A stretch of 32,000 nucleotides of DNA from Desulfocapsa sulfexigens DSM 10523 (GCF_000341395.1 NC_020304.1:2730001-2762000), one strand, 5' to 3'. Positions 7,257-29,390 are shown, counted from the first letter of the stretch. Program-made: numbers and translations. The notes: generated from the letters alone by a model not told the origin.

Positions 7257-7366
7257 ATTCCAGCTTAAGAAATTATACTAAAACATGTACTCCCAGCCAT
7301 TATGCCAGTAAATTGTATTAAATGGATTCATTCAAGTTTCTGGTGGGTGAACGTGAGGCTTCGGGA

Positions 7367-9122: not shown

Positions 9123-9132
9123 GGGGAGAAAT

Positions 9133-10302
9133 ATGAATATTCTATTTGTTCTCTATCACGATTTCAGTACTTCCAGTGCAATACATGTGCATAACTTCGC
9201 GAACCTTTTAGCGAAAAACGGTTGTAACTGTGCGGTGGCAGTACCTGCAAATAAAGAGTCTGTTACGGAGTATTTAGGTGGTGACGTACTTTACCAACCC
9301 TGTACTTTTGCCGAATCCCTTGAGCGATCGGTTGAGCTGTTTAGTGGGGAGGCGATGGATATCATTCATGCCTGGACACCACGGGAAAATGTCAGAAAAC
9401 AGTGTGATCTACTGAAAAAGCGATATCCTGGAAGTAAGCTGATTGTCCATCTTGAGGATAATGAAGAGATGATTGTAGAGTCCTTTGTCGGCCTGCCCTA
9501 CGATCAAATCCGTTCCTTATCCGAAGAGCGTTTACGGTTTCTGTTACCAGATTTGCTGGCATCCCCCTATCATTATCCTCTTTTTTTAGAGCAGGCAGAT
9601 GCGGTGTCAGTTATTACCGATGCATTACTGGATTTTGTTCCCTCCCATAAAGTCTATCACAGATTATGGCCAGCGATAGACTTGCGTCGTTTTAGTCCCG
9701 AGATTGATGGACGAGCCGTAAGAAATCGTCTGGGGTTTTCTGAAGATGATTTTCTCATCTGTTACGTCGGAAGTGTTCATGGGGTCAATGCTCAGGAAGT
9801 CCGAAGTCTGTATCAGGCTGGATTCATGGCAAACGATCTTGGTATACCGGTACGATTGATACGTGCCGGAAGGGATGTAGTGGATTTTCTGGGAGCAGAT
9901 AAAGATGAGTTGCAACGATATGTGACGAATGTAGGCTATGTTGATATGGATGATGTGCCTGGATTAATGGCAGCTGCAGATTTATTGGTGCAACCAGGGG
10001 AAAATGATCGTTTTAACAGGTATCGCCTGCCGTCAAAAATTCCAGAGTTTCTTGCCGTTGGCAAACCTGTTGCTGTTCCTCGCGTAAACATCGGGCTTCA
10101 TTTGCAAGACAGAGAGAACGCTTTTCTCATGGAAACAGGTGATGCCGCTTCAATTGTTGCTGTGATCCGTCTGATCTCTAATGACCGGGAGCTAGGTGAA
10201 AGGATTGGTGCTAACGGCAGGACGTTTGCCGAGCTCAATTTTTCCGAGGATACAGTGTATGGAAAGTTATCTGCCTTTTATGAGTCTGTTTTAGCATTAT
10301 GA
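9133..10302 (+). CDS. Glycosyltransferase, GT4-like (GT-B fold)
   Basis: A GAGGGGAG RBS precedes ATG 9133. The protein begins MNILFVLYHDFSTSSAIHVHNFA. The C-terminal half has FLICYVGSVHG and AADLLVQPGENDRFNRYRLPSKIPEFLAVGKPVAVP. Confidence 0.8.
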   Translation: MNILFVLYHDFSTSSAIHVHNFANLLAKNGCNCAVAVPANKESVTEYLGGDVLYQPCTFAESLERSVELFSGEAMDIIHAWTPRENVRKQCDLLKKRYPGSKLIVHLEDNEEMIVESFVGLPYDQIRSLSEERLRFLLPDLLASPYHYPLFLEQADAVSVITDALLDFVPSHKVYHRLWPAIDLRRFSPEIDGRAVRNRLGFSEDDFLICYVGSVHGVNAQEVRSLYQAGFMANDLGIPVRLIRAGRDVVDFLGADKDELQRYVTNVGYVDMDDVPGLMAAADLLVQPGENDRFNRYRLPSKIPEFLAVGKPVAVPRVNIGLHLQDRENAFLMETGDAASIVAVIRLISNDRELGERIGANGRTFAELNFSEDTVYGKLSAFYESVLAL

Positions 10303-12362: not shown

Positions 12363-12436
12363 ATTTACCTTCTGTGCAGTATGTTGTCTTGGGTCATTAT
12401 TCAGGCCCATTACTCATTTAACTCCATTGGTTTAGT

Positions 12437-15396
<2,960 letters not shown>

Positions 15397-15650: not shown

Positions 15651-15725
15651 ACCGTATTCTTGGTGAATATTGCATGCAGTTAATCGGCAACCTGCCTCCA
15701 TGGTTTTAAACAGAGAGTGATAAAC

Positions 15726-17585
15726 ATGAATACTATATTGAAGAAATGGAAGTTTCCAATTTTTCTAGGGGTATTGCTTTCTGTTTTGTACGTTCAGTTG
15801 TTTGAGAACAGAGCCTTTGTGGAACTGGATATTACGGTAACGGAACCCACACTGTTTAAGATCTACTGGGCAGAAAAAGGACAGTTTTACAGTGAAGATA
15901 ATATGGTTCGGGTAAAGGTGAACCCGGAACAACACCAGTATGGTTTTTATCTGACCGATATTGGCAAAGAGGCGATAAGACTCCGTATAGATCCCCAGCA
16001 GTATGTGGGACTCTCCACCATAAAGAAGATTGATTTTCAACAGACGGGCTATGCTCTTTTATCTGTTTCCTCCAGGGAGGATTTCGCCGGGCTGCAGCCA
16101 ATCTTTGATATTCAGGCAGCAAACATAACAGAGGATGGGTTGGAAACTGATTCAACTGGTGTGGATCCACAATTTGAATATTTTCCGGTACTGGAGTCGG
16201 CTGAATATTTCTCTGTTCTGTTAGTGCTTCGAATTGCTTCCATCTTTCTTCTACTGTTTTTGTTTTTTTCCTTAACTGAATCCTATCGGGAAGAAGATAG
16301 GTTTTTTCCGCTTCTGTTTGCCATAGTCCTTGCCCTCGTCGTTGCCATGGCAATGTTGACAAGACGAAACATTCATCCCGACGAATATGTACACCTGGAT
16401 GCGGCCAAGTACTACAGCAGCAATTGGATTCCACCCGATGTGACAGATCCGCAGATTGCCCATACCTACAGTGTTTACGGGGTATCCCGTCTGAATGGCC
16501 CGGAAGTTGCCTATTTCCTGAATGGGAAATTTTCAGAACTTATTTCTGTGTTTCCTCTGCCCGACTATTTGACTTTACGAATATTTAACCTGCTCCTCTT
16601 TACTTTGCTGTTGCTATATATTCTGAAAATTAAAGGAAAGAGGTATGTCGCAGCACCGCTGCTGATATCTCCGCAAATCTGGTATGTCTTCAGTTATTGC
16701 AACTCCGATGCCTTTGCATTGCTCCTTACTTTTTTTATAGCATGCCAGCTGGCGATTCCTGCCTCAATGCTCAACCTGTATCTTTTGGACAGGGAAAAGA
16801 AGAAAAAATTTGTCACTGCTCTTTTTCTGGTATTCGTTTTTGCGGCAATGTTTTTGTTAAAGAAGAACTATTGGTTCTTTATCGCCTTTGCAGCCGCGTA
16901 CTTTCTCTGGCGACTTGTCTTTATAGTCAGTGCAGAAGACCGAAAACAGGTTGTCAGGAAAATGACCATACTCATCCTGTTTGCTTTGAGTGTGACGGGA
17001 CTGAGAGTAGCAGGAGACTATGCAGTGAACGGATGGGATCGGAGTGAAAAACTGTCACAGATCCGTGAGCAGCTGGCTCATCCGTTTTATAAACCGTCCA
17101 CTCCACTTGAAGAAAAACATCCCTTTTTATACAGGAAGGCACGTGGTGCTTCTTTGAAAGAGATTGTAGTTGTTGATAGATGGTTTGAAAGAAGTTATCA
17201 AAGTGCTTTTGGTATTTATGGATATTTTACCGCCACTGCAGATGACACCTATTATGATCTGATGAGGCCTCTTGCTGTGGTATTTTTTATGGCGCTTCTT
17301 CTTTCGGTTCTTTTTCGTGGAGGCCTGAGTGGAAATATTCTGATGTTCCTCTTTCTTGGTTGTTCCGGAGCAGTTATAGCGGCTTCCCTCTACCACTCGT
17401 GGACTGCAGACTTTCAACCACAGGGAAGGTATCTCTTACCGATGATACCGGCACTTTGTATTGTTCTGTATCATTCGAGAAATCTTATGCAGAACGTATT
17501 GTTCAGAATATGTCTAATGGGTATGTTTTTGTTATCCACCTACTCTTTTCTTTTTGTTGGAATGATGCAACTCACTAAAATGTAG
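15726..17585 (+). CDS. Polytopic membrane protein, GT-C-fold glycosyltransferase-like (PMT/ArnT-like DE motif), with an N-terminal extracytoplasmic RIDP module
   Basis: An N-terminal TM is followed by a ~135-aa soluble module and then at least 10 hydrophobic segments. HPDEYVHLDAAKYY sits in the loop after TM3, resembling the acidic first-loop motif of GT-C enzymes. The start is ATG 15726 or GTG 15717. Confidence 0.6.
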   Translation: MNTILKKWKFPIFLGVLLSVLYVQLFENRAFVELDITVTEPTLFKIYWAEKGQFYSEDNMVRVKVNPEQHQYGFYLTDIGKEAIRLRIDPQQYVGLSTIKKIDFQQTGYALLSVSSREDFAGLQPIFDIQAANITEDGLETDSTGVDPQFEYFPVLESAEYFSVLLVLRIASIFLLLFLFFSLTESYREEDRFFPLLFAIVLALVVAMAMLTRRNIHPDEYVHLDAAKYYSSNWIPPDVTDPQIAHTYSVYGVSRLNGPEVAYFLNGKFSELISVFPLPDYLTLRIFNLLLFTLLLLYILKIKGKRYVAAPLLISPQIWYVFSYCNSDAFALLLTFFIACQLAIPASMLNLYLLDREKKKKFVTALFLVFVFAAMFLLKKNYWFFIAFAAAYFLWRLVFIVSAEDRKQVVRKMTILILFALSVTGLRVAGDYAVNGWDRSEKLSQIREQLAHPFYKPSTPLEEKHPFLYRKARGASLKEIVVVDRWFERSYQSAFGIYGYFTATADDTYYDLMRPLAVVFFMALLLSVLFRGGLSGNILMFLFLGCSGAVIAASLYHSWTADFQPQGRYLLPMIPALCIVLYHSRNLMQNVLFRICLMGMFLLSTYSFLFVGMMQLTKM

Positions 17586-17654
17586 GATGTATAGAATGAT
17601 CTTTCCAGGGAAAAACGCATCTTTTTGCAGCAGGAATACATGGGGTTATAGCCT

Positions 17655-19274
17655 GTGAAACTGATTCCACTGCTAATGGCATTATCAGTTGCTCTGCTTG
17701 CCTGCTTTGTTCTTCCCAGTGGTATGGCGAAGGTTTCTGCTATCTCTTTAATCGTTTCGTCTGACAGTCAGGATTCGGTACAAATATTTCTTGATGGTTC
17801 CTATAGGAAGCCCTCTTTTATAGAGAGTAACGCCTCAGAGTTGCAGAAGATGCCGGTGAAAGATGCAGGGAAGGTTCTTTTTCGGTTTTCTGCCACGCCT
17901 TCAACTACCTGGATTCGTATTGATCCTGGAGAAAATCCCGGCGTCACTCGTATCTACGGAATGGTTGTTCAGCAGGCACTTGGACGAAAAGTACAGTATA
18001 GCAGTGATGATATATTCAAGGGCTTTCAGCCAGGCAGAAATGGGGTCACCATAAGTCCTGGAAAGGATTATGTTGAGATTGTCTCCACCGTGGCAGATCC
18101 ATCCATTGTCTCAGTCCCGGGGTTCATTACTGCACCCAGACCTGTTTTTTTCTATCTGCCCGTTATAATCCTCTCATTTTTTCTCTATGTTTTTCTGGCA
18201 CAGTTGAAACCAGAAACTATTCGTACCATTTTCCTTCCTCAGAGAGAACTTCGTCCCGGAGTTGCCATGATTTCACCTCTTGATGGTTTGCGCGGTATTG
18301 CCGCCATGCTGGTTGTCGCAGATCACACCTGGTCATGGTTTCTTGGTGCCGGTGCAAGTGGAGTCTTGATTTTTTTTGTTTTAAGCGGATTTCTGCTGAG
18401 CAGGCCTTTTGTTGTAAATCCGGGAAAATATCAAAATCCGGGGAGTCTGCTTGTCTATGGAGTAAGACGGTTGCAGCGAATTGTACCCATGTACTATTTG
18501 TACCTCTTTCTTACCTTTGGGATGACCTTACGTCTGCATGAATTGTTCATGCATCTCTTTTTTATTGAAGCTGCGGGCCATTTATGGGCAATTCCTCAGG
18601 AGATGGCCTTTTATATCGTATTTCCTCTTCTCGCCCTGTTTAACTTTTTTGTCCTGCGAAGCCGGCTGGTCCTGATCATTCCCGGTTTATTACTGATGAT
18701 TTTTCTCTGGCATTCGTTTGCGACCATTAAATATATTTATTTATTCGGGATGATGAATGCAAAAATTCCATTTCGTCTCGATGCTTTTTTGATAGGTGTG
18801 TTGTGTGCATACCTCTATTTCGGTCTCTGGCAAAAAAACGAACTGACAATGCCATCTGTGCTGAAAAAAGGTTTTATTGTGGTCGGTTGTATTTTACTGG
18901 CAGTCTTTATCGCATTGTCAAATGGATATTTGCTGCATAATGGTCTCATTTATGCTCAAATCTATTATTTATACTACGCAATCTGCGCCGGTTTTTTGAT
19001 CCTCATACTCTGTAGTTCCGGAGAGAATTTTCTTACTAAAATCCTGTCCAGTCGCCTGCTCTCATCTCTGGGAGTTGTGAGTTACAGCCTCTATCTCTTC
19101 CATCCACTGGTTATTCCTTTAGTGAAGCGGGCCGGGGGAGGGACTTTGAACTCAATTCCGGGCGTGCGATTTGTACTGGTGCTGTTTATAGGCTATATTG
19201 TGGCCTGCCTTTTGTATCATTTTATAGAACGCCCTATTTTGGGCTATGGAATAAAGAAAAACATTCGTGAGTAG
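17655..19274 (+). CDS. Acyltransferase family 3 (OafA/YrhL-type membrane O-acyltransferase) with an N-terminal extracytoplasmic RIDP module
   Basis: The AT3 signature ISPLDGLRGIAAMLVVADHT...GVLIFFVLSGFLLSRPF is followed by multiple TM segments and a C-terminal YSLYLFHPLV. It is preceded by a signal/TM segment and a ~130-aa module. Confidence 0.85.
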   Translation: MKLIPLLMALSVALLACFVLPSGMAKVSAISLIVSSDSQDSVQIFLDGSYRKPSFIESNASELQKMPVKDAGKVLFRFSATPSTTWIRIDPGENPGVTRIYGMVVQQALGRKVQYSSDDIFKGFQPGRNGVTISPGKDYVEIVSTVADPSIVSVPGFITAPRPVFFYLPVIILSFFLYVFLAQLKPETIRTIFLPQRELRPGVAMISPLDGLRGIAAMLVVADHTWSWFLGAGASGVLIFFVLSGFLLSRPFVVNPGKYQNPGSLLVYGVRRLQRIVPMYYLYLFLTFGMTLRLHELFMHLFFIEAAGHLWAIPQEMAFYIVFPLLALFNFFVLRSRLVLIIPGLLLMIFLWHSFATIKYIYLFGMMNAKIPFRLDAFLIGVLCAYLYFGLWQKNELTMPSVLKKGFIVVGCILLAVFIALSNGYLLHNGLIYAQIYYLYYAICAGFLILILCSSGENFLTKILSSRLLSSLGVVSYSLYLFHPLVIPLVKRAGGGTLNSIPGVRFVLVLFIGYIVACLLYHFIERPILGYGIKKNIRE

Positions 19275-19339
19275 TTTCGGGCAGGAATTTTTTTGCCACG
19301 ATGTTTGATAAATAAATGAGTCGAATTCGGGAGTGATGA

Positions 19340-20413
19340 ATGAGTTTTAGTAAAGGTCCGGAAAGAGGAATACTCTTTAAGGTCACAGTAATAATAGTGT
19401 TTTTGTTTTTGTTTTTGCTTTGTCTTTTGTTCGGTGCTGAACTTTTTGTTCGTTTTTTTTATCGTGACGTGCTCTCCACTGCAGATGGAACTTCCTATTT
19501 TTCCCTGAAAAACCAGAGATTGTTTGAAAAAGAAAAGAACGGTTTTAATTTACGGGGAAAACAGTTCAGGCAAACTCCTGACGATCGCTACAGACTTGTG
19601 ATTCTAGGAGATTCCTTTACATGGGGCCAGGGTGTTTATCCGGTAGAGAAACGCTATACCGAACAGATTGATGTAGCACTCAATAAACAACAGAAAGAAA
19701 ACGAAATTGAAGTTGTCAATGTCGGCATCTGCGGATTTAACCTTCCTAATCATTATAAGTTTCTTCATTTTATTGATGCAATTCAGCCCGATTATGTGTT
19801 GTACCAATGGTATATTAATGATATGTCAATCCGACCCGACGCCGGTCAGTACAAATCATCCCATCTGATCACAAATCGAAAAGTGCATACCTGGCTATGG
19901 AAGCATTCAGCCCTCTATTATCTTTTGCAGAGAGGGTATGGAAGCCTGCAAAGGAAACAGGGGGAAAAGAAGACTTATGAGCAGTACATGTTTGATACTC
20001 AAAAGGATCCAACAGGTGAATCTGTAGTAGCTGCACGGAAATTGCTTGAGAAATATATAGATCATTATAAAAGTACCGATACTGATTTTGGTATGGTTCT
20101 GTTTCCAAGTTTTGCCGGGCCTATGAATAATTATAACTTAGATTTTCTTCACGAACAGGTACTCGATGTTTGTAAGGAAAAGAAAATAGAATGCCTGGAC
20201 TTACGTGATGCCTATCGTGATGTCGAGGATAATACGGCATTATGGGCAAATGTTTTTGATCCCCATCCTGGAGTGTTGGCACATAAGATAGCTGCAGAGG
20301 CAATCTATGATTTTTTTGGTGCCGACTGGGAAGAGGCGGCACAGAAAGTTAGCGTTCACAGGGATCTTCATAGTCAAAAAAATAATGATAAAGCTCAAGC
20401 GGAGATGAAGTAA
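19340..20413 (+). CDS. Membrane-anchored SGNH/GDSL hydrolase-type esterase/acyltransferase
   Basis: N-terminal TM: VTVIIVFLFLFLLCLLFGAELFV. Block I is RLVILGDSFTWGQG, block II is VNVGICGFN, and block V is FDPHPGVLAHKIAAEAI (DxxH). Confidence 0.85.
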   Translation: MSFSKGPERGILFKVTVIIVFLFLFLLCLLFGAELFVRFFYRDVLSTADGTSYFSLKNQRLFEKEKNGFNLRGKQFRQTPDDRYRLVILGDSFTWGQGVYPVEKRYTEQIDVALNKQQKENEIEVVNVGICGFNLPNHYKFLHFIDAIQPDYVLYQWYINDMSIRPDAGQYKSSHLITNRKVHTWLWKHSALYYLLQRGYGSLQRKQGEKKTYEQYMFDTQKDPTGESVVAARKLLEKYIDHYKSTDTDFGMVLFPSFAGPMNNYNLDFLHEQVLDVCKEKKIECLDLRDAYRDVEDNTALWANVFDPHPGVLAHKIAAEAIYDFFGADWEEAAQKVSVHRDLHSQKNNDKAQAEMK

Positions 20414-20871
20414 TGAGTGTTCCCTATACACAAAATAAGGTGTCTCAAGCAATCTGGTCATGGCAGTCTGATCGATCTGGAAAACAACAAGCAAAAGCTT
20501 CCCTCGGCATTGCCATTGGAGCTCTGTTGGTAGGATGCACTGTCGCTTCATTGTTGTTCTTCTACAACCATTTGATAATGGCTTCAATTGTCTTTAGCGT
20601 TTCCGCTTTGGTATTTCTTTCTTCTCAATTTTTTCCGGCTGTTTATTCCGTAATTGAAAAGATTTTTCAAAAGTTTGCTCTTATTATCGGTACAGGCCTG
20701 ACGTGGGTTTTTCTCCTGCCTTTTTTCTTTATCTGTTTTCCAATGGGTAGAATAGTGCAAAAAATTAAAGGAAAGGATCCCATGCAGCGAGATTTTAAAA
20801 GAGACGCTACGTCCTATTGGCAGACATCCAGGAAAACACCCTCGGTTGATGAGTATAAGAGGCAATTTTGA
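20413..20871 (+). CDS. SxtJ-like small membrane protein (carbamoyltransferase-associated)
   Basis: 152 aa with 3-4 TM segments and a C-terminal GKDPMQRDFKRDATSYWQ, typical of SxtJ-family proteins. TAATG overlap upstream and TGATG overlap with the carbamoyltransferase gene downstream. Confidence 0.65.
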   Translation: MSVPYTQNKVSQAIWSWQSDRSGKQQAKASLGIAIGALLVGCTVASLLFFYNHLIMASIVFSVSALVFLSSQFFPAVYSVIEKIFQKFALIIGTGLTWVFLLPFFFICFPMGRIVQKIKGKDPMQRDFKRDATSYWQTSRKTPSVDEYKRQF

Positions 20872-22697
20872 TGAATATTTTAGGTATCAGTGCATATTAC
20901 CATGATTCGGCTGCTGTCTTGATTCGCGATGGTCAAATCATTGCTGCAGCTCAAGAGGAGCGGTTTACCAGGATTAAACATGATCATGATTTTCCCCATA
21001 ATGCAATACGCTATTGTCTTGCAGAGGCAGGTATTGAAGGTGAGCAGCTTGATGCTGTGACTTTTTACGACAAGCCGATCCTGAAGTTTGTAAGGATTAT
21101 GGAGACCTATTTTAGTGTAGCTCCCAGGGGACTGGCTTCTTTTATGAAGGCAATGCCACTCTGGACCAGGCAGAAATTATGGATCCCCTATTATATAGAA
21201 AAAGGCTTGGCAGGCTGTGGAGTCAGCACTAAAAATATTTACTTTACTCAACATCATGAATCACATGCTGCCTCTTCTTTTTATCCATCACCCTTTGATG
21301 AGGCTGCTGTTCTCACCATGGATGGAGTGGGGGAATGGGCCACGGCAACCATTGCCGTAGGTCGTGGTAATAAGATTGAGATGGTCAAGGAGCTCTGTTT
21401 TCCACATTCTCTGGGCTTGCTCTATTCAGCAATTACCTATTTCTGTGGATTTCGGGTCAACTCTGGAGAATATAAACTAATGGGATTAGCTCCCTATGGT
21501 TCTCCAAAATATGTGGATCGTATTCTTGAGAACCTTTTAGATCTCAAGGAGGATGGCTCCTTTCGCCTGGATATGAAATATTTTGGCTATATGGATGGAT
21601 TACGGATGACTGGTCCATTGATGGATGTGCTTCTCGATGGTTCTCCCCGCGAACCTGAAAGTCCTATCACGACTCGAGAAATGGATATAGCGGCCTCTAT
21701 CCAGGTGGTAACTGAGATGATAGTCCTGAAGATGGCTCGTTATACCCGTGAAATAACCGGTATGAAAAATCTGTGTCTTTCAGGAGGGGTTGCTTTGAAC
21801 TGTGTTGCCAACGGGCGATTGCTTCGAGAGGGAATCTTTGATGATATCTATATTCAGCCAGCATCAGGTGACGCCGGTGGTGCTCTTGGAGCAGCATTGT
21901 TGACCTGGTATCAAATTAATGATCAGCCTCGTAGCAGTAATAATAAAGATGATTCGATGCAGGGATCCTATCTTGGACCCTCCTTTGAGGACGATGAAAT
22001 CGAAGCCTACCTTAGGGCAAATAACTATGTGGCAAGAAAGGTTGAAGGAAAGGACTGGGCCCGTGAGATTGCCGGCTATATTGCAAATGAAAAAGTGGTA
22101 GGACTGTTTCAGGGAAGGATGGAATTTGGTCCACGCGCCCTTGGTTGCCGCTCTATTATAGGTGATGCCAGATCGACAAATATGCAGTCGACGATGAACC
22201 TCAAGATTAAATACAGGGAATCGTTCAGGCCGTTTGCTCCTTCATGTCTTGAGGAAAAGGTTGGAGAGTATTTCGATATTGACAGGCCATCTCCCTATAT
22301 GCTTATTGTTGCCGATGTCAGAAAAGAACGCTGTCTGGAGGTTGAGGGTGACAATACGGTAGTGTTTGAGGAACAGATCAACCAGTTGCGATCCGATATC
22401 CCGGCTATAACGCATGTTGATTACTCTGCTCGTATTCAGACGGTTTCTCCAAAAACGAATAAGCCCTACTATGATATTATCAAGGCTTTCGATGAATTGA
22501 CCGGCTATGGTGTGATAATTAATACATCCTTTAATGTCCGTGGTGAGCCCATTGTTTGTACTCCTGAGGATGCCTACCGATGCTTTATGCGGACTGAGAT
22601 GGATTGCCTGGTTCTTGGATCTTTTCTGCTTGAAAAGTCCGAACAGCCTGAATTTGTAGATAATGCCAATTGGCGCAATGAGTATCAGCTTGATTAG
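20871..22697 (+). CDS. Carbamoyltransferase (NodU/CmcH family)
   Basis: MNILGISAYYHDSAAVLIRDGQIIAAAQEERFTRIKHDHDFP, then HHESHAASSFYPSPF, LTMDGVGEW, CLSGGVALNCVANG, IQPASGDAGGALGAA, and the C-terminal NTSFNVRGEPIVCTPEDA. Confidence 0.92.
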   Translation: MNILGISAYYHDSAAVLIRDGQIIAAAQEERFTRIKHDHDFPHNAIRYCLAEAGIEGEQLDAVTFYDKPILKFVRIMETYFSVAPRGLASFMKAMPLWTRQKLWIPYYIEKGLAGCGVSTKNIYFTQHHESHAASSFYPSPFDEAAVLTMDGVGEWATATIAVGRGNKIEMVKELCFPHSLGLLYSAITYFCGFRVNSGEYKLMGLAPYGSPKYVDRILENLLDLKEDGSFRLDMKYFGYMDGLRMTGPLMDVLLDGSPREPESPITTREMDIAASIQVVTEMIVLKMARYTREITGMKNLCLSGGVALNCVANGRLLREGIFDDIYIQPASGDAGGALGAALLTWYQINDQPRSSNNKDDSMQGSYLGPSFEDDEIEAYLRANNYVARKVEGKDWAREIAGYIANEKVVGLFQGRMEFGPRALGCRSIIGDARSTNMQSTMNLKIKYRESFRPFAPSCLEEKVGEYFDIDRPSPYMLIVADVRKERCLEVEGDNTVVFEEQINQLRSDIPAITHVDYSARIQTVSPKTNKPYYDIIKAFDELTGYGVIINTSFNVRGEPIVCTPEDAYRCFMRTEMDCLVLGSFLLEKSEQPEFVDNANWRNEYQLD

Positions 22698-22872
22698 CAG
22701 TGAAGTAGCTGCCTGATTGCATTTGCCGTAATTCTGTGTAATATAGCTGCGTTCCTGGATATGGTGTTCAGGCTTGGTTGTCGACGGAAGAGGTTGTTCA
22801 GGCAGAAAATGAACAATTTAGACAGCTCTCGGTTGTCGAATGTTTTTAAGAAAAAAAAGAGAGAAGTAATTT

Positions 22873-23037
22873 ATGCATTTTATAAAACATTTGTTTTCCT
22901 TATTGGGTGAAGTATTTCAGTTTGCCTGGAAGAATAAGGTATGGTGGATAGTACCTGTAGTTCTGGTTTTTCTCGGTATTGGCCTCTTAATAGTTGTTGG
23001 TGAAACGGCTGCTCCGTTTATCTATACTCTGTTTTAA
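22873..23037 (+). CDS. DUF5989/SxtK-like small membrane protein (54 aa); below the ORF-track size cutoff
   Basis: Hand translation: MHFIKHLFSLLGEVFQFAWKNKVWWIVPVVLVFLGIGLLIVVGETAAPFIYTLF*. A single TM and the C-terminal APFIYTLF are characteristic of the DUF5989 family usually found beside carbamoyltransferase and SxtJ genes. Confidence 0.75.
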   Translation: MHFIKHLFSLLGEVFQFAWKNKVWWIVPVVLVFLGIGLLIVVGETAAPFIYTLF

Positions 23038-23052
23038 GCGTTTGTTGTATGT

Positions 23053-23095
23053 GCAGCACTGTTTTCCTGATACCCCGTTAGGGAAACAGTGTTGC
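23053..23095 (+). terminator. Strong stem-loop 16 nt after the DUF5989-like stop codon (candidate terminator or RNA-processing hairpin; no U-tract)
   Basis: gcagcactgttttcc (23053-23067) pairs with gggaaacagtgttgc (23081-23095). That is 15 bp including two G-U pairs, with a 13-nt loop. It is followed by agagagtaaat rather than a T-run. Confidence 0.35.
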
Positions 23096-23264
23096 AGAGA
23101 GTAAATACCGGGTGTTCCATGTGAGCCCAACGGTGAACCCCGTCAGGGTAGCTCTCTTGTATTCCTAAAAAGGAACTTTTTGCTTCCTCTTCCTACAATG
23201 GAAAAAATTCAATTTCCGCAGAAGCTGTATATTCTACTATTACTGATATCCAGAGGCCAGTGAA

Positions 23265-25874
23265 GTGCAATATCGTCCTGACATCGATGGCTTACGGTCA
23301 GTTGCGGTACTCAGTGTAATACTCTTTCATATAAATAATAGTCTGGTGCCAGGCGGCTTTGTCGGGGTCGATATCTTTTTTGTTATCTCCGGGTACCTGA
23401 TTACCACAATTATTGTTGGCGGCATTTCTAATAACAGTTTTTCCCTGGTCAGGTTTTATTCACGAAGGGTAAAACGCATTTTTCCTGCATTATTTTTGGT
23501 TTTGTTCTTTTCGTTACTCTTTGCCGTAGTGACCTTTGAACCAACAACCTATGATAAATTCTTTAAGGAATTGCGTTACGCAGCCCTGCAAATTTCAAAT
23601 TTTGTTTTTTCCCGGGAGATTGGCTATTTTGATGCCGCCAACGAAACATCTCCATTACTGCATACCTGGTCCCTTGGTGTAGAAGAACAATTTTATCTGA
23701 TTTGGCCAATATTCCTCCTCTTCCTGCACAGGTTCTGTAAGAACCGGATAGCACAGTCGCTATCAGTAGTTTCTATTATTTCATTTATCTACAGTGACCA
23801 TCTGGCTTCCTCGGCACCGCAAATTGCCTTTTATATGCTGCCATCACGGGCATGGGAACTCGGGATTGGTGGTTTGCTGGCTGTGTCGATGACGTCAATT
23901 AGCAAATCCAGATGGCTTAATAATTTGATCTCATTGCTGGGAGTGCTGCTGGTTCTGACCTCTGTCTGTGTAATTAACGACAGCTACACCTTTCCTGGGA
24001 AATGGGCTCTTCCACCGGTTATTGGGGCAGTACTTCTGATCTTCAGTGGGGCTTCCCGTAATACGGTTGCATATCATGTTCTGTCGTGGAAACCATTTGT
24101 CTTTATAGGAAAAATATCTTACTCACTCTACCTCTGGCATTGGCCAATAATTGTTTTTTACAAAGAGTTGATTGCCCCAGATATCAGTTTGACAGCAGGC
24201 ATAGCGATTCTGCTCCTAACTGTGATAATGTCCCTGTTGTCATTCTTTCTGGTTGAAAAGCCCTGTCGTTATGGGGTTTATCCTCAGGTTCCGCAAAAAA
24301 TATATACATATATATCAGAGACCACATTGCTTCGAAAAGTTGCATATGTACTGATTCCGGTGCTTCTATTACCCTTGGCTGCCACATCATTACTGTCCGG
24401 TTTTAATACAATTGAAGAAAATAATGAACTTACTTCCCTTGAAATAGAGGTCGAACTGATAAAAAGTAATGACCCATCAAAAAAGGAGGCCATTACTCTC
24501 TACTGGACTAACAGTGACGGTCATTTCGAGAAGAAGGCCTGGTCGAGACATTCTTATAGTCCTGAAAATGTAGTTAAAAACAATTTATATCGTTTTGTTT
24601 TTAAACTGCCGGACCTGAGTAAGGTTGGCACTGTCAGGCTTGACCCCTTGGATCACAAGGGAGTTGTACGTGTTATCAGTGTCACCTTGACAGAGGGGAT
24701 TTTCAATCTGCGTCGCAGTGTTGAAATGAGTGAGGTTGCGGCCAATATGTCTGGAGAATATCATCTACAGGCACGATATGAAAATGATGCTCTGTTGCTT
24801 GAAACCCTGGGGGAAGATCCTCAGATAATACTTTTCCAAAGTATTTCTAAAACCATTTTAGAAAATGCGCTCATATATTTGATCTTCTTAAGTATTTTTT
24901 CCTTAACCGTTCTTTCCATAATGCTTTTTGGTTCTGGGAATGAAGAGCTTGCTGCCATTCTCACGGGTAGCGTGATTATCATTCTACTCCTGTTGAGTTC
25001 TGCACGGTTACAATATTCCAGTCATGCAAAATGGCGTTTTCTTGATGATGAACAGGCCAGTTTTCTTCTGACAGAAACTCCCATGACAGAGCTGGCAACA
25101 TTTGCCAAGCCTGATAATCAGGACGTTATTTTGATAGGGGATTCCCATGTCGGGAGTTTTGCATGGCCAGTGGAAAGGTGGAGCAGAGAGGCAGGACTTT
25201 CTTTTGGCTTGTTCGGACTTCCAGCGTGTCCTCCTGTTTTTTATGACTATAAGTCTAATGTGAAAAGAAAAATTAGCAGCCAATATTCTGCCTGTGCCAA
25301 CTCTACCAATAAGATATTGAAGGATATAATAGACAATGACACTACACAATATGTTTTTATAGCTATCAGGCACGAGTTTTATATGGCAAATCCTGAGAAA
25401 CTTTTTCACCCAGATACCCTTAAAAATCTAAAGGGAGAAGATTCTGTCCTTGGGTTGTTTAAGGATTCCATTGTATACACAATTCAGGCATTGGTTGATA
25501 GCGGGAAGAATGTGGTTATTCTCGGTCAAGTTCCAGTTTTGGAGGAACTCCCGAAGACTTGCCTGAGTCGAAATGTCACATTGCTTGCAGCATTTTCCAA
25601 AACAAATAAATCCTCCTGTGACATGGATAAGGAGAAGAGTGACTTGAGATTGCAAGCGGGCAATGAGCTCTTTTTGGAAATTGCGGAGAAGAGTGAAAGT
25701 GTATGGTTTTTTGAATCAGGCAAATATCTGGAGACTATATTTGCCGATGACGGATCGATATTCTATTACGATGACAATCATCTGAGTCATAAGGGCTCCG
25801 TGTATATATATCCTTTTATTAAGGGCTCTTTAAAACAAGCAGATAATCATGGTTTTGGTAAAACTTCCTGGTAG
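23265..25874 (+). CDS. Fused AT3 acyltransferase - RLDP module - TM hairpin - SGNH domain protein (OafA/OafB-like O-acyltransferase with an inserted domain)
   Basis: AT3 signature: YRPDIDGLRSVAVLSVILFHI...GVDIFFVISGYLIT...HTWSLGVEEQFYLIWP...YSLYLWHWPI. The C-terminal SGNH-like domain has VILIGDSHVGSF and YYDDNHLSHKGS (DxxH). About 200 aa between them form the module plus two TM segments. Confidence 0.85.
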   Translation: MQYRPDIDGLRSVAVLSVILFHINNSLVPGGFVGVDIFFVISGYLITTIIVGGISNNSFSLVRFYSRRVKRIFPALFLVLFFSLLFAVVTFEPTTYDKFFKELRYAALQISNFVFSREIGYFDAANETSPLLHTWSLGVEEQFYLIWPIFLLFLHRFCKNRIAQSLSVVSIISFIYSDHLASSAPQIAFYMLPSRAWELGIGGLLAVSMTSISKSRWLNNLISLLGVLLVLTSVCVINDSYTFPGKWALPPVIGAVLLIFSGASRNTVAYHVLSWKPFVFIGKISYSLYLWHWPIIVFYKELIAPDISLTAGIAILLLTVIMSLLSFFLVEKPCRYGVYPQVPQKIYTYISETTLLRKVAYVLIPVLLLPLAATSLLSGFNTIEENNELTSLEIEVELIKSNDPSKKEAITLYWTNSDGHFEKKAWSRHSYSPENVVKNNLYRFVFKLPDLSKVGTVRLDPLDHKGVVRVISVTLTEGIFNLRRSVEMSEVAANMSGEYHLQARYENDALLLETLGEDPQIILFQSISKTILENALIYLIFLSIFSLTVLSIMLFGSGNEELAAILTGSVIIILLLLSSARLQYSSHAKWRFLDDEQASFLLTETPMTELATFAKPDNQDVILIGDSHVGSFAWPVERWSREAGLSFGLFGLPACPPVFYDYKSNVKRKISSQYSACANSTNKILKDIIDNDTTQYVFIAIRHEFYMANPEKLFHPDTLKNLKGEDSVLGLFKDSIVYTIQALVDSGKNVVILGQVPVLEELPKTCLSRNVTLLAAFSKTNKSSCDMDKEKSDLRLQAGNELFLEIAEKSESVWFFESGKYLETIFADDGSIFYYDDNHLSHKGSVYIYPFIKGSLKQADNHGFGKTSW

Positions 25875-25996
25875 GTTGTTCAGTGAAGTTTTTCAGTATT
25901 CCTGGGAGAAAAAAGTATGATTGGATTGTTTCCATTGTTTTAGTATCTTGGAATCTCTTTTGGATACTGGCGTCTGGTGTTTTTGGGGTAAATTAA
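25849..25996 (+). pseudogene. Second DUF5989-like mini-gene, frameshifted at an A6 run; overlaps the 3' end of the AT3-SGNH gene
   Basis: From ATG 25849 the frame reads MVLVKLPGRLFSEVFQYSWEKKV*. This aligns residue for residue with MHFIKHLFSLLGEVFQFAWKNKV of the 22873 ORF. The +1 frame continues YDWIVSIVLVSWNLFWILASGVFGVN*, compared with WWIVPVVLVFLGIGLLIVVG. The frames meet at aaaaaa 25909-25914. Confidence 0.55.
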
Positions 25997-26039
25997 AAGT
26001 ATCGGCATCACCGTATGTCGTTTGAACCATTGGGAAGAC

Positions 26040-29000
26040 ATGAATTTGGTCAATAGTAGGAAAAATTGGTATAGAGCTGGCGTCTTTTTGTTTTCTGCGA
26101 TTGTTCTTTTGCTGCTTTATTTCTTGTCGTTGCAGGGAGAAGTGACGATTGAAACAGATATTAATGATCGTTTTCAGATTTTCTGGTCCGATGGAACGGG
26201 CTACTATAGCGAAAATAACTCTGCAACAGAATATCCAGTTGAGTATCTCGAAAATAATACTGTAACCAGGTTCCGAACAGGTAACCTCTCTAAAATTGAT
26301 AACATCAGAATTGATCCATTGTTTGGCAGTGGAAAATTCAAGATTTTTTCTATTCAGATCTCTCAGCCGGGTTATAAAACGATGTCTTTTAGTACCCAGG
26401 GAGAACTGAAGCGCCTCATGCCAGTTAATCATTTGTCAGATTTCCAGGTAACTGAAAATGGCATATCGGCGATATCTAATGGTAATGATCCTCAGATCAT
26501 GCTGCCTTTTCAGGCAAGATTGTCCTGTTTTTGGGTACTATCCAGGCTTTCAGCTTCTCTTGCTATCGTTATAGTAGCTTTTTTTGTGGTGAAGAGTTGT
26601 TTCAAGCATAAGAACCTTTTTGCCGGCGCCATCTTTCTCGCGAATATCTTGATCGTTGGTTTGCTTATTCTTGGTTGGTGGACGAGCAAAGATAATACTC
26701 TTTTTCAGAATGGCCGATGGACTGTTGGTAAGGATGCAGGGAAGTTTGTTTTTCAGACCTATGAGTTTATGTCTGCACCAATGAGTGGTTCTGGGATTTC
26801 TCTTACTGCTAATATGGGGTTCCAGGAGATTACATATAAAAACCACGATAGTGATACTCGTCGTTTAGAAGAATTGTCCTGTCAGGTGTATATTGGTCCT
26901 CAAGCGTATGTCTGGGTTGAGCTGGAAAAAAAAGATCAACAGATGTTGGGTGTCAGAATATCACGAAATGGAGAGTATAAGAGCGGTTTTTACACCTATT
27001 CGTCTAAAGGAAAACTCGTCAGCAAACAGTTGCTGCAAATTCCCAAGGACATGCTTAATTCTTCGAGTCGTATTGTCCTTTCACGTCAAAATGGAACATG
27101 GACCCTGGCGGTTAATGACAGACAAATGGGATCGAGTTTAGCTATTGATAATAAAAACAGTACGTTCGGGTTTCGTGGCTGTACTACGGGACGAGAAATG
27201 TATTTACGAAATATTGAAATGAAGTTTGTTGATCCAGTCACAGAGAAAAGATGGGTTGAAACCGAGGATTTTGGGCCTTCTGCTTCAAAGCAGCGCAGTA
27301 CTCCCTGGATATTTGTTTTTGTTAGTATTGTGTTGCTCGTAAAAGCAGTTCGGGATGAGGTGTTGATGAATTATTTGCCATCAGATAAACACCATCGTTT
27401 CAGGCTGTTAAGTCAATTGTCCCTTTTCGTTCCAGCATCCGCGGCCTTGTTGTTCTTTTTTAGGGACTCCATTTATGCGACGCCATTCTCGTTTTTAGTT
27501 GCAGAGTTGGTGGTTGTTGTGGGGTTTGCTTTGTTTTTTGAACAGGAAAAGGTGCACCTGGGTACCAAAAAATGGTTGTCAGTGCTGTATGTCATTGGCA
27601 TCTTGCTGGTATCGGGATGTTCTTTTTTGGTGAACGATACGATATTACAATCTTCACAGAGAGTTTCCAATAAGAATTTGAGTCGTATTGATCCGGGAAT
27701 TTACATTACTACCCCTCAGGCTCCTCCAACAAAAGTGCCCTATGTAGCCACTGCGCCAATAGTGATTAAGGCCGGACAGCCATTTTTTGTTCCTGGTGTA
27801 TTCAGGGAGCAGGTGATTGACCTTGTTTTTTCCCTTCCTGAACAGACTACACTTGATATTGTTTTTGAACAGCAGGGTTTTGTCACGCGTGGAGATTCTG
27901 ATGGTGAAGCTATACCACTTCAACGTCGATTGCTTCGCTTGTCAACCAAGTCAGGTGTCGTTTCAGGCTTAAGTACAAAAACTGGAGTACGTTCAGCTCC
28001 CTTTATGAAGATTAATGGTGAGTTGTTGGTTCATGCGAACAATAAGGTATCTATTACTGTCACAAATAAAAGGGTTAAGCTGAATTTGAATGGTGTTCTT
28101 ACTACCTTTGATCAGTTTGGGTTGCTTGGTTTTGGGGAGACTGGGTTTTTGACTTATGAAAATTCAGTGAATTTGAAAGCTGTATCGGTCACCCCAACTG
28201 AGCTGAAAGCAGGTCCGGGTAACAAAATGTATTTATTTATGTTTTTTGTTCCTTTTGTCTTTGCATTCCTCCTGTTCTTTCTCTTTCGTCTGGCTGGTCC
28301 TGTTGCTTTATTCCCTACTGCGATTCTTGCTCTTTGTTCCTATTATCCAATAGTTGTGTTGTTAACTGCTGGTATGTTTCTTCCTTCTGGTAGTCTCCAT
28401 TTTCTGAGCGATGGAAGACTCGGGTGGTTATTTATAATGGCGGCGGCCGTTGCGGTAAATTTGTTTTGTATTCTGATCTACGCTAAGAGGCAGATAAAAA
28501 TTCCTGCCTTATATGCTAATCTCCTCTCTCTTATAGTCATTGTGGCAGTTGCTGGTTACGTCTATGTGATATTGCCAGATGATAATCCTATAAAATTGAG
28601 ATTTTCTCAAAATACAATTGCCCCAGGAGATATTGCTCATGCTGAGGAGAAGAAACATGTGCCCTGGTATGCTGACAATTCGTTAATCGGCACGAATATC
28701 TGGGTTTGGAGTCAACTTTTTGGTGGAGAGAAGGCAGTGCCGGGTTCAGGAAATACTAAAGATGCAGTACGAATATTTGTTATCGGCGGTAGTCAGGCCT
28801 GGGGCTCCGGTGCTGCAAATAGTGATAGTACTTTTTCAAAATTGCTTGAGAAAAAATTACTGGATAAGAAATTACCCGTTCAAGTGTTAAATGCTGGAAC
28901 AAATGCTGTGGGCCTCCAGACTATCACCCGGTCCAATAAACAGCTTTTACCAATTTATGAGCCTGATATTATAATTATTGATGTTGGGACCAATGACTCT

Positions 29001-29390
29001 GGAGCACGTAAAATGGTCCCGGGAGTTAAGAATCAACAAAGGTTTGTGCATGACAGGCTAATGGATTTTCGGACATTTGTTGAGTTTTTTCAGGGACAAG
29101 GTGTACGAATTATCTTAAATTTAGAGGCTATGTGTGCGGAGAGCTATGATAACTTTTCTCCAGATCCTGAACTGTATGACGGCTTGAAAAAAATTGCGGA
29201 AGACACAGGGGTTTCTGTGATAGTTCCGTCAAGTGTAACTGAACAGATTGAAAAAGAGTATCCGCTATGGTGGGACATTGCCCATTTGACGCCATATGGA
29301 CAGCAGGTGATGGCTGAAATACTCTTACCGACAACTGAGAAATTGGTTAATGAAGTGTTAAAGAGCAGCATGTCAGGGAGAGCTTTGTAA
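26040..29390 (+). CDS. Giant (~1116 aa) polytopic membrane protein: N-terminal RIDP module, two jelly-roll-like extracytoplasmic domains separated by TM bundles, C-terminal SGNH hydrolase domain
   Basis: A single uninterrupted ORF; the start is ATG 26040 or TTG 26022. There are about 11-12 hydrophobic segments. The C-terminal SGNH blocks are VRIFVIGGSQAWGSGA, LNAGTNAVG, IIDVGTNDS and WWDIAHLTPYGQ. No AT3 signature is present. Confidence 0.8.
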   Translation: MNLVNSRKNWYRAGVFLFSAIVLLLLYFLSLQGEVTIETDINDRFQIFWSDGTGYYSENNSATEYPVEYLENNTVTRFRTGNLSKIDNIRIDPLFGSGKFKIFSIQISQPGYKTMSFSTQGELKRLMPVNHLSDFQVTENGISAISNGNDPQIMLPFQARLSCFWVLSRLSASLAIVIVAFFVVKSCFKHKNLFAGAIFLANILIVGLLILGWWTSKDNTLFQNGRWTVGKDAGKFVFQTYEFMSAPMSGSGISLTANMGFQEITYKNHDSDTRRLEELSCQVYIGPQAYVWVELEKKDQQMLGVRISRNGEYKSGFYTYSSKGKLVSKQLLQIPKDMLNSSSRIVLSRQNGTWTLAVNDRQMGSSLAIDNKNSTFGFRGCTTGREMYLRNIEMKFVDPVTEKRWVETEDFGPSASKQRSTPWIFVFVSIVLLVKAVRDEVLMNYLPSDKHHRFRLLSQLSLFVPASAALLFFFRDSIYATPFSFLVAELVVVVGFALFFEQEKVHLGTKKWLSVLYVIGILLVSGCSFLVNDTILQSSQRVSNKNLSRIDPGIYITTPQAPPTKVPYVATAPIVIKAGQPFFVPGVFREQVIDLVFSLPEQTTLDIVFEQQGFVTRGDSDGEAIPLQRRLLRLSTKSGVVSGLSTKTGVRSAPFMKINGELLVHANNKVSITVTNKRVKLNLNGVLTTFDQFGLLGFGETGFLTYENSVNLKAVSVTPTELKAGPGNKMYLFMFFVPFVFAFLLFFLFRLAGPVALFPTAILALCSYYPIVVLLTAGMFLPSGSLHFLSDGRLGWLFIMAAAVAVNLFCILIYAKRQIKIPALYANLLSLIVIVAVAGYVYVILPDDNPIKLRFSQNTIAPGDIAHAEEKKHVPWYADNSLIGTNIWVWSQLFGGEKAVPGSGNTKDAVRIFVIGGSQAWGSGAANSDSTFSKLLEKKLLDKKLPVQVLNAGTNAVGLQTITRSNKQLLPIYEPDIIIIDVGTNDSGARKMVPGVKNQQRFVHDRLMDFRTFVEFFQGQGVRIILNLEAMCAESYDNFSPDPELYDGLKKIAEDTGVSVIVPSSVTEQIEKEYPLWWDIAHLTPYGQQVMAEILLPTTEKLVNEVLKSSMSGRAL

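Follow-up and report, generated by a model that had tools for sequence, protein, structure and literature searches.

A TM-bracketed module shared by four membrane enzymes of a Desulfocapsa sulfexigens locus is predicted to be a circularly permuted carbohydrate-binding jelly roll

Four membrane proteins encoded at one locus of Desulfocapsa sulfexigens DSM 10523, referred to here as proteins A, B, C and D, each carry a homologous all-beta module of ~125 aa, which, as modelling and profile comparison indicate, has the fold of a carbohydrate-binding jelly roll (CBM6/35-like) in circularly permuted order. We consider it rather probable that this permuted jelly roll, an orphan at the sequence level, captures the polysaccharide of the locus for decoration at the membrane surface. 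The window analyzed was a stretch of 32,000 nt (NC_020304.1:2730001-2762000), and all coordinates are counted from its first base. The module-bearing proteins and their parts are as follows.

15717..17585, + strand, protein A (622 aa): N-terminal transmembrane (TM) segment, module, TM segment, multi-TM DUF2142-like (GT-C-type) core
15747..15803, + strand, TM helix before module A (aa 11-29; Kyte-Doolittle scan)
15801..16184, + strand, module copy A (~aa 29-156; A3 HMM 124 bits, independent profile 121.5 bits)
16209..16265, + strand, TM helix after module A (aa 165-183; Kyte-Doolittle scan)
17655..19274, + strand, protein B (539 aa): TM segment, module, TM segment, AT3 domain (PF01757, aa 209-521)
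17661..17717, + strand, TM helix before module B (aa 3-21; Kyte-Doolittle scan)
17730..18134, + strand, module copy B (~aa 26-160; A3 84 bits, independent profile 64.5 bits)
18144..18200, + strand, TM helix after module B (aa 164-182; Kyte-Doolittle scan)
23265..25874, + strand, protein C (869 aa): AT3 domain (aa 6-325), TM11, module, TM hairpin, SGNH domain (PF19040, aa 612-851)
24438..24845, + strand, module copy C (~aa 392-527; A3 85 bits, independent profile 61.5 bits)
26022..29390, + strand, protein D (1122 aa): TM segment, module, ~10 more TM segments, C-terminal GDSL/SGNH domain (aa 918-1100)
26139..26513, + strand, module copy D (~aa 40-164; A3 125 bits, independent profile 117.2 bits)

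An earlier note on this DNA had proposed that one module recurs in these four open reading frames, and the peptides quoted in it were all located where it had placed them. Pairwise blastp gave 48 bits for A-D, 40 for C-D, 30 for A-C and 28.5 for A-B. When an HMM was built from three copies, the omitted copy was in each case the best match in the six-frame translation of the window (42.8, 17.3, 28.3 and 50.6 bits; none of 2000 shuffles exceeded 7.7 bits). A profile made from 123 module instances outside this genome, each with <35% identity to every window copy, scored 121.5 bits on A, 117.2 on D, 64.5 on B and 61.5 on C (shuffles, at most 6.7 bits), and the module searches found no fifth copy within the window. 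With single sequences, hhalign exceeded 50% probability only for A-D (96%), C-D (90%) and A-B (68%); with family-enriched profiles every pair reached 97.0-100% over 113-124 columns, none falling below the 50% that the note had set as its limit. Copy B is the most divergent of the four, with FL in place of the YW pair and ADPS as a variant of the distal motif, and the family of its type aligned to the other three types at 97% or above. The motifs in copy A are YW, R89-x-D91-P and G-x-D149-P. Recent duplication inside the locus was ruled out, the copies having 49-77% identity to same-enzyme orthologues and 20-30% to their neighbours.

The enzymes that share the module differ in their catalytic parts, as had been claimed. 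Protein A itself had no Pfam match and no PDB sequence match; PF09913 (DUF2142), which we take to be a member of Pfam's GT-C clan, was matched by 6 of the 16 members of its family (best E-value 3.8e-11), so the earlier description of A as GT-C-like is a reasonable one. The motif HPDE[YF]VH (H219, P220, D221, E222, H225) is invariant in the family alignment and lies in the loop following the third TM segment. Protein B, identical to WP_041916415.1 of D. sulfexigens, is an AT3 acyltransferase (PF01757, 84.7 bits, cut-off 31) with a Lys/Arg-rich loop between the post-module TM segment and the AT3 core. Protein C matches PF01757 at 113.2 bits (cut-off 31) and PF19040 at 112.4 bits (aa 612-851) and thus has an AT3 and then an SGNH part in one chain, with the module inserted after TM11 of the AT3 part and ahead of a two-helix hairpin and the SGNH domain. 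In protein D, two further, unassigned loops of ~200 aa lie among the TM segments and had neither similarity to each other nor a module match; its orthologue cluster is labelled "lysophospholipase L1-like esterase" by JGI.

TM segments of A-D were located by a Kyte-Doolittle hydropathy scan, which placed hydrophobic TM stretches on both sides of all four copies and so bore out the description of a module set directly between TM segments. The N-terminal tail of protein A has three Lys residues, in keeping with an N-in orientation. In protein C, two TM segments (aa 536-554 and 562-580) separate the module from the SGNH domain, which puts the two on the same side; in C and D alike, the number of TM segments between module and SGNH domain is even. 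Published work on AT3-SGNH proteins puts their SGNH side in the periplasm, and the TM count together with the positive-inside pattern suggests that the SGNH domain of protein C is extracytoplasmic. The four window copies, which share the SGNH side by TM count, are accordingly placed as probably extracytoplasmic. To this extent the extracytoplasmic location proposed in the earlier note holds, but it does not extend to the family as a whole: the module is not intrinsically extracytoplasmic, since it also occurs on GT2 proteins, among them methyltransferase-GT2 proteins, that have no TM segments.

The earlier note could name no described domain that matches the module. As a sequence family it is indeed absent from Pfam-A 2025, NCBIfam and PDB sequences; its fold class, once the permutation is taken into account, is that of the CBM jelly rolls (galactose-binding-domain-like). 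Searches of A-D against Pfam (E <= 1) and NCBIfam gave no match on the module, Pfam searches at E <= 10 with 58 module segments and 31 canonical-order domains gave no recurrent family, and profiles A1, A3 and A4 met only chance matches among PDB sequences. Module copy D was modelled by AlphaFold2 with a pLDDT of 93.3 and a pTM of 0.86, as 11 strands and one short helix, and Foldseek returned no PDB match to this window-order model at E <= 1e-3. In AlgJ/AlgX-like proteins (PF16822) of ~525 aa the domain is found at the C-terminus with its halves in swapped order. Whole-profile hhalign of the window-order against the AlgJ-type domain gave 98.8%. When the profiles were split, the C-half aligned to the N-half at 95.4% (E 1.7e-8) and the N-half to the C-half at 99.2% (E 3.5e-19), with same-half controls at 0.2-0.3%, and the secondary-structure elements of the two AlphaFold2 models pair one-to-one under the half swap. 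The canonical-order model (P0169, aa 396-525, from natural AlgJ-type sequences; pLDDT 93.3) had 119 Foldseek matches in the PDB at E <= 1e-3. The top and the bulk of these were CBMs (BiXyn10A CBM1, CBM6, CBM35, CBM29, CBM15, CBM4 and the Ape1 CBM), with E-values of 5e-6 to 3e-4, probability 1.00 and TM-scores of 0.53-0.71 over ~120-145 columns.

From the CBM matches of the canonical order and the swapped halves it follows that the module is a circular permutant of the CBM jelly roll. The split-profile test shows that the window copies lack the canonical strand order of CBM jelly rolls; the two-sheet beta-sandwich superposable on CBM6/35 belongs to the canonical-order relative, which is tied to the window copies by hhalign probabilities of 95-99%. 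The CBM similarity is at the level of fold only, with no Pfam or PDB sequence match. The sequential structure search thus missed the permuted form and found its canonical-order relative, and other "orphan" domains may hide behind permutation likewise. The ASRAH beta-sandwich superfamily (PMC2739507) was considered and dropped, being a different family. PLAT/LH2 domains were weak matches of the window-order model (E 0.03-0.4, TM-score 0.33-0.49, rmsd 4-9 Å) and were superseded by the CBM matches.

PLAT/LH2 domains target lipids, and as the only PDB neighbours, weak as they are, of the window-order model they would suit a module that reads the membrane surface or the lipid carrier, binding a common moiety (an undecaprenyl-(pyro)phosphate head group or lipid) and not the variable glycan. 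We regard such a reader as improbable. A domain tied to TM helices at both ends is necessarily seated on the bilayer, its invariant Arg and acidic residues could bind phosphate or a metal, and copies of the module are found at the two faces of the membrane, in every case on enzymes whose substrates are membrane-anchored intermediates. Against this, the PLAT matches fall short of significance (E >= 0.03, TM-score 0.36-0.49), the significant neighbours once permutation is allowed for are CBMs, and the AlgJ-type copies are C-terminal and have no TM tether.

Beyond this locus, an exhaustive representative search (E <= 1e-3) placed the module family in 582 clusters at 50% identity. A word-indexed homologue search with the four-sequence profile had returned one fragment only, and the module alignment has no conserved stretch of 7-10 columns. 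The fusion partners comprise GT-C proteins (DUF2142, DUF6056, PMT_2), AT3, AT3-SGNH, GDSL, AlgX-like SGNH, CotH and GT2 enzymes; all partners that can be named by Pfam are glycan-pathway enzyme families, and several others have no Pfam match. A TM segment lies within 25 aa on both sides in 126 of 191 module instances. Tandem arrays reach seven copies (P0006); multivalency is typical of CBMs. The best-conserved module residues are R58, D60 and D118 (98% each across 174 instances), followed by E26 and an aromatic pair (~98% aromatic), and these residues are unchanged across the fused enzyme types. Such constancy would be more readily explained by a structural role, as a salt bridge or metal site, or by a ligand shared by all of them than by recognition of varied glycans. 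It is in our view a doubtful prospect that the module, instead of being a classical binder of sugar chains, is a unit for recognition at the membrane surface shared by many envelope-glycan enzymes, in which the near-invariant Arg/Asp/Asp/Glu cluster reads a shared feature, for example the polyprenyl-pyrophosphate end of a carrier-linked polymer, or docks the enzymes onto one another, the four enzymes being gathered as a decoration line on one carrier-linked chain; if so, the cassette would be a transferable targeting element, usable by membrane enzymes at either face. Conserved residues that could be purely structural would also suit an inert spacer or folding scaffold, a cassette kept for membrane insertion or spacing with no ligand. 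This we hold to be the least probable reading, given that the family persists in 582 or more clusters (50% identity) and many enzyme contexts, soluble proteins and tandem repeats included, and given the conserved aromatic pair and E26, which from their strand positions are probably exposed at the surface.

The earlier note had offered two roles, a glycan-binding unit and an assembly unit. The first gains support at the fold level from the predicted permuted CBM6/35-like jelly roll; such jelly rolls also serve in contacts between proteins, which counts against it. In the second, an assembly or docking unit, the sandwiches would pair mutually or with a common partner and so gather the GT-C, AT3 and SGNH enzymes, without sugar binding. 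The four copies in one locus are what such a unit would lead one to expect, a core motif near-invariant across enzymes would suit one common protein interface, and the jelly-roll PDN of EmbB packs on another domain via strand pairing (PMC7305291). Related loci were gathered via the protein A family; among the 37 Desulfobulbales loci with full flanks, two or more module-bearing proteins were present in 19, but a lone one in the other 18, and the window-order copy was single in 32 of the 37. GT2 proteins that are soluble and cytoplasmic carry the module too, tandem arrays of it occur within single chains, and the window copies are closest to same-enzyme orthologues elsewhere and not to their locus neighbours. 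Assembly thus found no specific support and appears to us unlikely.

The preferred reading, that of polysaccharide capture, also draws on the other genes of the locus, which are listed here.

6102..13342, + strand, three GT4 and two GT2 glycosyltransferase genes (Pfam)
19340..20413, + strand, stand-alone membrane-anchored GDSL/SGNH protein (PF13472), just downstream of protein B
20868..22697, + strand, NodU/CmcH-type carbamoyltransferase (PF02543, PF16861), another decoration enzyme

The GT4 and GT2 genes presumably build the polymer that the module-bearing enzymes decorate. The GDSL/SGNH protein, in which profile search found no module, may be a separately encoded partner of protein B, which has the AT3 part only. 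Scans for Rfam families, promoters and terminators gave nothing relevant.

The module most likely keeps the locus polysaccharide at the membrane surface, where it can be glycosylated and acylated. The N- and C-termini created by the permutation run straight into TM helices, and the sandwich would accordingly be seated against the outer side of the cytoplasmic membrane, with the GT-C, AT3 or SGNH catalytic part beside it. Each enzyme would use its own copy to take hold of the polysaccharide, exported or lipid-linked, that the GT4 and GT2 enzymes make, and the chain, so held, could be glycosylated or acylated by the GT-C site, at the AT3 pore exit or by the SGNH domain. A TM-module-TM cassette (in, out, in) would leave membrane topology unaltered and could therefore have been added before unrelated N-in enzymes (A, B and D); in C, the cassette and an extra TM hairpin would have been placed between the AT3 and SGNH parts. 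The analysis establishes that the four copies are homologous, their fold class, the permutation and the range of fusion partners; the membrane side, the glycan binding, the nature of the ligand and this cassette logic are inferred.

With this assignment, a large domain family absent from Pfam-A, NCBIfam and PDB sequences as searched here gains a predicted fold and a testable role. A predicted domain for substrate capture would be added to hundreds of membrane proteins that are labelled only "acyltransferase family protein", "hypothetical" or DUF2142/DUF6056. AT3, AT3-SGNH and GT-C side-chain enzymes shape the chemistry of O-antigen, capsule and cell-wall polysaccharide, and how they choose their acceptors is poorly understood; an acceptor-binding module would offer a way to swap specificities and to pull down the native substrate.

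Among known systems, CBM6, CBM35, CBM4, CBM15 and CBM29 (PDB 1uxz, 5fui, 4qb2, 4mgs) are of the same fold class and of similar size (~125-140 aa), and CBM6/35-type domains, like the module, are appended to glycan-active enzymes. Classical CBMs, however, are carried by secreted glycoside hydrolases and have no sequence similarity to the module, the window copies of which are half-swapped and inserted between TM helices. The pairing of AT3 and SGNH in protein C is that of the O-acetyltransferases of the OafA/OafB type, in which, as in C, an extra TM helix takes the chain out of the cytoplasm; in protein C, the module and a two-helix hairpin stand between that helix and the SGNH domain, an insertion so far unreported, to our knowledge, in OafA or OafB. 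AlgX (PDB 4KNC) and the canonical-order PF16822 proteins share one architecture, an SGNH-like domain with a beta-sandwich C-terminal to it, although the PDB sequence searches gave no match, 4KNC included, and 4KNC was absent among the best 50 structural matches. The C-terminal type-B CBM of AlgX has been reported to explain the alginate binding that AlgJ lacks (PMC9487903). Unlike AlgX, the window proteins carry the domain permuted and between TM segments, on AT3, GT-C and GDSL enzymes.

The nearest parallels in placement are the periplasmic jelly rolls of GT-C enzymes, namely PDN and PDC of EmbA/B/C, the CBMs of AftD and the CBM of ORF12, none of which has a detectable sequence relationship to the module; Emb chains were absent among the matches listed for both models. 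In EmbB, the jelly-roll PDN follows TMH1 and precedes TMH2, in front of the GT-C core (PMC7305291), the placement that the module has in protein A. The CBM of the GT136 enzyme ORF12 binds the unmodified O-polysaccharide backbone, and that of EmbC is needed for efficient activity (PMC11127046). In protein A, unlike Emb, an additional TM hairpin carries the module, and the TM helix leading into the HPDE-motif loop comes after this hairpin; the module differs from Emb-type domains in its use by AT3 and SGNH enzymes as well. The module is most likely a grip on the sugar chain, a familiar idea in an unfamiliar form: permuted, held by TM helices and uncatalogued.

The module, about 125 residues long, is carried by four forward-strand proteins in the window, and all peptides quoted for it in the earlier note were found there.

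15717-17585, + strand: protein A, module copy at 15801-16184
17655-19274, + strand: protein B, module copy at 17730-18134
23265-25874, + strand: protein C, module copy at 24438-24845
26022-29390, + strand: protein D, module copy at 26139-26513

Pfam identified AT3 in B, AT3 and SGNH in C and GDSL at the C-terminus of D; it gave no match on A or on any of the four module regions, and NCBIfam gave none on the module. Pairwise blastp of the ~130-aa segments yielded 28-48 bits in four of six pairs. In leave-one-out HMM searches of the six-frame window, the omitted copy was the top match every time (17-51 bits; best of 2000 shuffles, 7.7 bits), and no fifth copy was found in the window. A profile built from other genomes only (123 instances, each <35% identical to every window copy) scored the window copies at 61.5-121.5 bits and shuffles at ≤6.7 bits, and hhalign among orthologue-enriched profiles of the four types gave 97-100%, none falling below the 50% named in the earlier note as counting against a shared module. 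The recurrence of one module in four enzymes, as proposed there, is true homology. The most divergent copy is that of B.

Topology was assigned by a hydropathy script rather than a dedicated predictor, and this bore out the placement of the module between transmembrane (TM) segments in all four proteins. Proteins A, B and D have the module between an N-terminal TM helix and another TM helix; in C it is preceded by TM helix 11 of the AT3 part and followed by a two-helix hairpin, then by the SGNH domain. The helices that flank the module have Lys/Arg-rich stretches on their far side. An even count of TM segments separates module from SGNH domain (2 in C, 10 in D), and all four copies are thus predicted to share the side of the SGNH domains, which published work on AT3-SGNH enzymes places in the periplasm. 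Protein A has an invariant HPDE[YF]VH motif in the loop after its third TM segment, so that its first two helices and module look like an add-on before the core. The start codon of B differs between annotations (site 17655-17675; RefSeq, 539 aa, GTG at 17655; GenBank AGF79002.1, 532 aa), and a complete first TM helix requires the longer form. Protein D has two further hydrophilic loops of ~200 aa between TM segments, both predicted on the module's side.

26673-27293, + strand: first loop of D (aa 218-424)
27633-28229, + strand: second loop of D (aa 538-736)

Pfam matches neither loop, and the two resemble neither each other nor the module; strand-like motifs, FGFRGC and GFGETGF among them, suggest additional beta-sandwich domains.

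An AlphaFold2 model of module D (58-sequence alignment; pLDDT 93.3, pTM 0.86) contained 11 strands and one short helix. Foldseek against the PDB returned no match to it at E ≤ 1e-3; the best hits, PLAT/LH2 sandwiches, were weak and were rejected. Profile alignment related the module to the terminal domain of AlgJ/AlgX-like proteins (PF16822) of ~525 aa, a C-terminal extension missing from shorter relatives (~380 aa). The last ~80 residues of that domain align with the first ~80 of the module, and the ~45 residues before them with its last ~45. Whole-profile hhalign gave 98.8%; when the profiles were split, crossed halves gave 95.4% (E 1.7e-8) and 99.2% (E 3.5e-19) and same-order controls 0.2-0.3%. 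The two domains are related by circular permutation. The canonical-order domain of one such protein (P0169, aa 396-525; 31-sequence alignment) was modelled with pLDDT 93.3 and pTM 0.87, showing the same secondary-structure elements as module D in swapped order, and had 119 Foldseek matches at E ≤ 1e-3. Carbohydrate-binding jelly rolls led these (BiXyn10A CBM1, CBM6, CBM35, CBM29, CBM15, CBM4 and the CBM of Ape1, a peptidoglycan O-acetylesterase; TM 0.53-0.71). The models place the module in the CBM jelly-roll fold class, as a circularly permuted form that is an orphan in sequence; the permutation is why sequential structure search missed it. The earlier statement that no described domain matches thus stands for Pfam, which gave nothing for either strand order at E ≤ 10, and fails for the fold.

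The family counted 582 proteins at E ≤ 1e-3, and 161 at the stricter E ≤ 1e-10, when 1.84 billion cluster representatives were searched exhaustively with HMMER; sequences from Paenibacillus, Methylococcales and Desulfobacterales are among its members. Partner domains were AT3, AT3-SGNH, PMT_2, DUF6056, DUF2142, AlgX-type SGNH/DHHW, GDSL and CotH; every partner nameable by Pfam is a glycan-pathway enzyme family. A TM segment lay within 25 residues on both sides in 126 of 191 instances (155 proteins), and up to seven TM-bracketed copies occurred per protein (P0006, 1756 aa). P0006, a Methylococcales-related metagenomic protein, has a repeated TM-module-TM-TM-module array followed by a multi-TM C-terminal part. 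The family of A is DUF2142-like and, in the best 80 genome loci, nearly confined to Desulfobulbales. In 16 loci the module forms the C-terminus of a TM-less GT2 protein of ~410 aa (e.g. L011, 3227-4534; L044, 3028-4266), matching clearly over HMM positions 18-85 and divergent in the DP half; in many Desulfobulbales such a gene precedes the protein-A-type gene by 5-7 kb. No module is present in the GT2 genes of the window itself. Another TM-less protein combines a methyltransferase, three modules and two GT2 domains. The module was previously described as extracytoplasmic, which agrees with the predicted side of the four window copies; because TM-less GT2 proteins carry it, the family is not strictly so.

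Conservation in the module is strongest at R58, D60 and D118, at 98% each; P61, P119, G116, E26 and an aromatic pair come next, and all are alike whatever the fused enzyme. A cluster with a structural role, or a ligand shared by all the pathways, suits this pattern better than does recognition of diverse glycans; the glycan-binding unit envisaged earlier is supported by the modelled fold. Such enzyme-independent conservation is also why two other roles were retained: binding of a lipid carrier, which we consider improbable, and an assembly unit bringing enzymes together, the other earlier suggestion, to which we give similarly low odds. Assembly is weakened by the many loci with a single module-bearing protein: among 37 with full 10-kb flanks, 18 had one module-bearing ORF, 17 two and 2 three. 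Among the best 80 protein-A-type loci, 28 had at least two, and only one further locus (L016) had four. Soluble and tandem forms also count against it, as does the finding that each window copy is nearest to same-enzyme-type orthologues elsewhere, not to its locus neighbours, which indicates old fusions and no recent local spread.

The window encodes a locus for the biosynthesis and decoration of polysaccharide, with three GT4 and two GT2 glycosyltransferase genes, an LPG_synthase_TM protein, a hexapeptide transferase, protein B (identical to WP_041916415.1, 'acyltransferase family protein', Desulfocapsa sulfexigens DSM 10523) and the following.

4765-5904, - strand: IS4-type transposase (DUF4372 + DDE_Tnp_1), upstream, between two unassigned ORFs and the first GT4 gene
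10299-10700, + strand: N-terminus, with degenerate repeats, of a 687-aa double-GT2 protein
13339-15396, + strand: 685-aa protein, N-terminal HAD-like hydrolase domain (aa 23-220), remaining ~450 residues without Pfam match
19340-20413, + strand: stand-alone membrane-anchored GDSL/SGNH protein, directly downstream of AT3-only B
20413-22697, + strand: 152-aa ORF without Pfam match and, overlapping it downstream, NodU/CmcH-type carbamoyltransferase (609 aa)
22698-23264: 567-bp gap between the carbamoyltransferase and protein C genes

GC rises from ~0.35 to 0.44 across the transposase, so this locus boundary may be mobile. The motif F-D-[AP]-x-[WF]-Y occurs 3-4 times (FDADWY, LFDPIFY, WFDPEFY) in the ~130 residues before the first GT2 domain of the double-GT2 protein. 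Protein B and the adjacent GDSL/SGNH protein look like a split version of fused protein C. The carbamoyltransferase gene suggests glycan O-carbamoylation besides acylation. The gap, which has no ORF ≥100 aa, may be an operon boundary within the locus; two weak terminator-like hairpins (22754, 22821) and one promoter-like site (23000) were seen in it.

The best-supported role is that of a predicted acceptor-capture domain, given the modelled fold class, the glycan-pathway partners, the tandem arrays and parallels in AlgX and GT-C enzymes: each enzyme would keep polysaccharide next to its own catalytic part at the surface of the membrane. A TM-module-TM cassette would not alter topology, and this would account for how the module reached unrelated N-in membrane enzymes. 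That envelope-glycan enzymes can carry CBMs is an established idea; the novelty here lies in the sequence family, its permutation, its insertion between TM helices, the fact that AT3 and AT3-SGNH enzymes use it, and four copies in one locus. The parallel with AlgX is one of architecture: the C-terminal CBM of AlgX is reported to explain why it, unlike AlgJ, binds alginate (PMC9487903). Likewise, the module may be compared with the jelly-roll domain between TMH1 and TMH2 of the GT-C enzyme EmbB (PMC7305291) and with the CBM by which GT136 ORF12, also GT-C, binds the O-polysaccharide backbone (PMC11127046).
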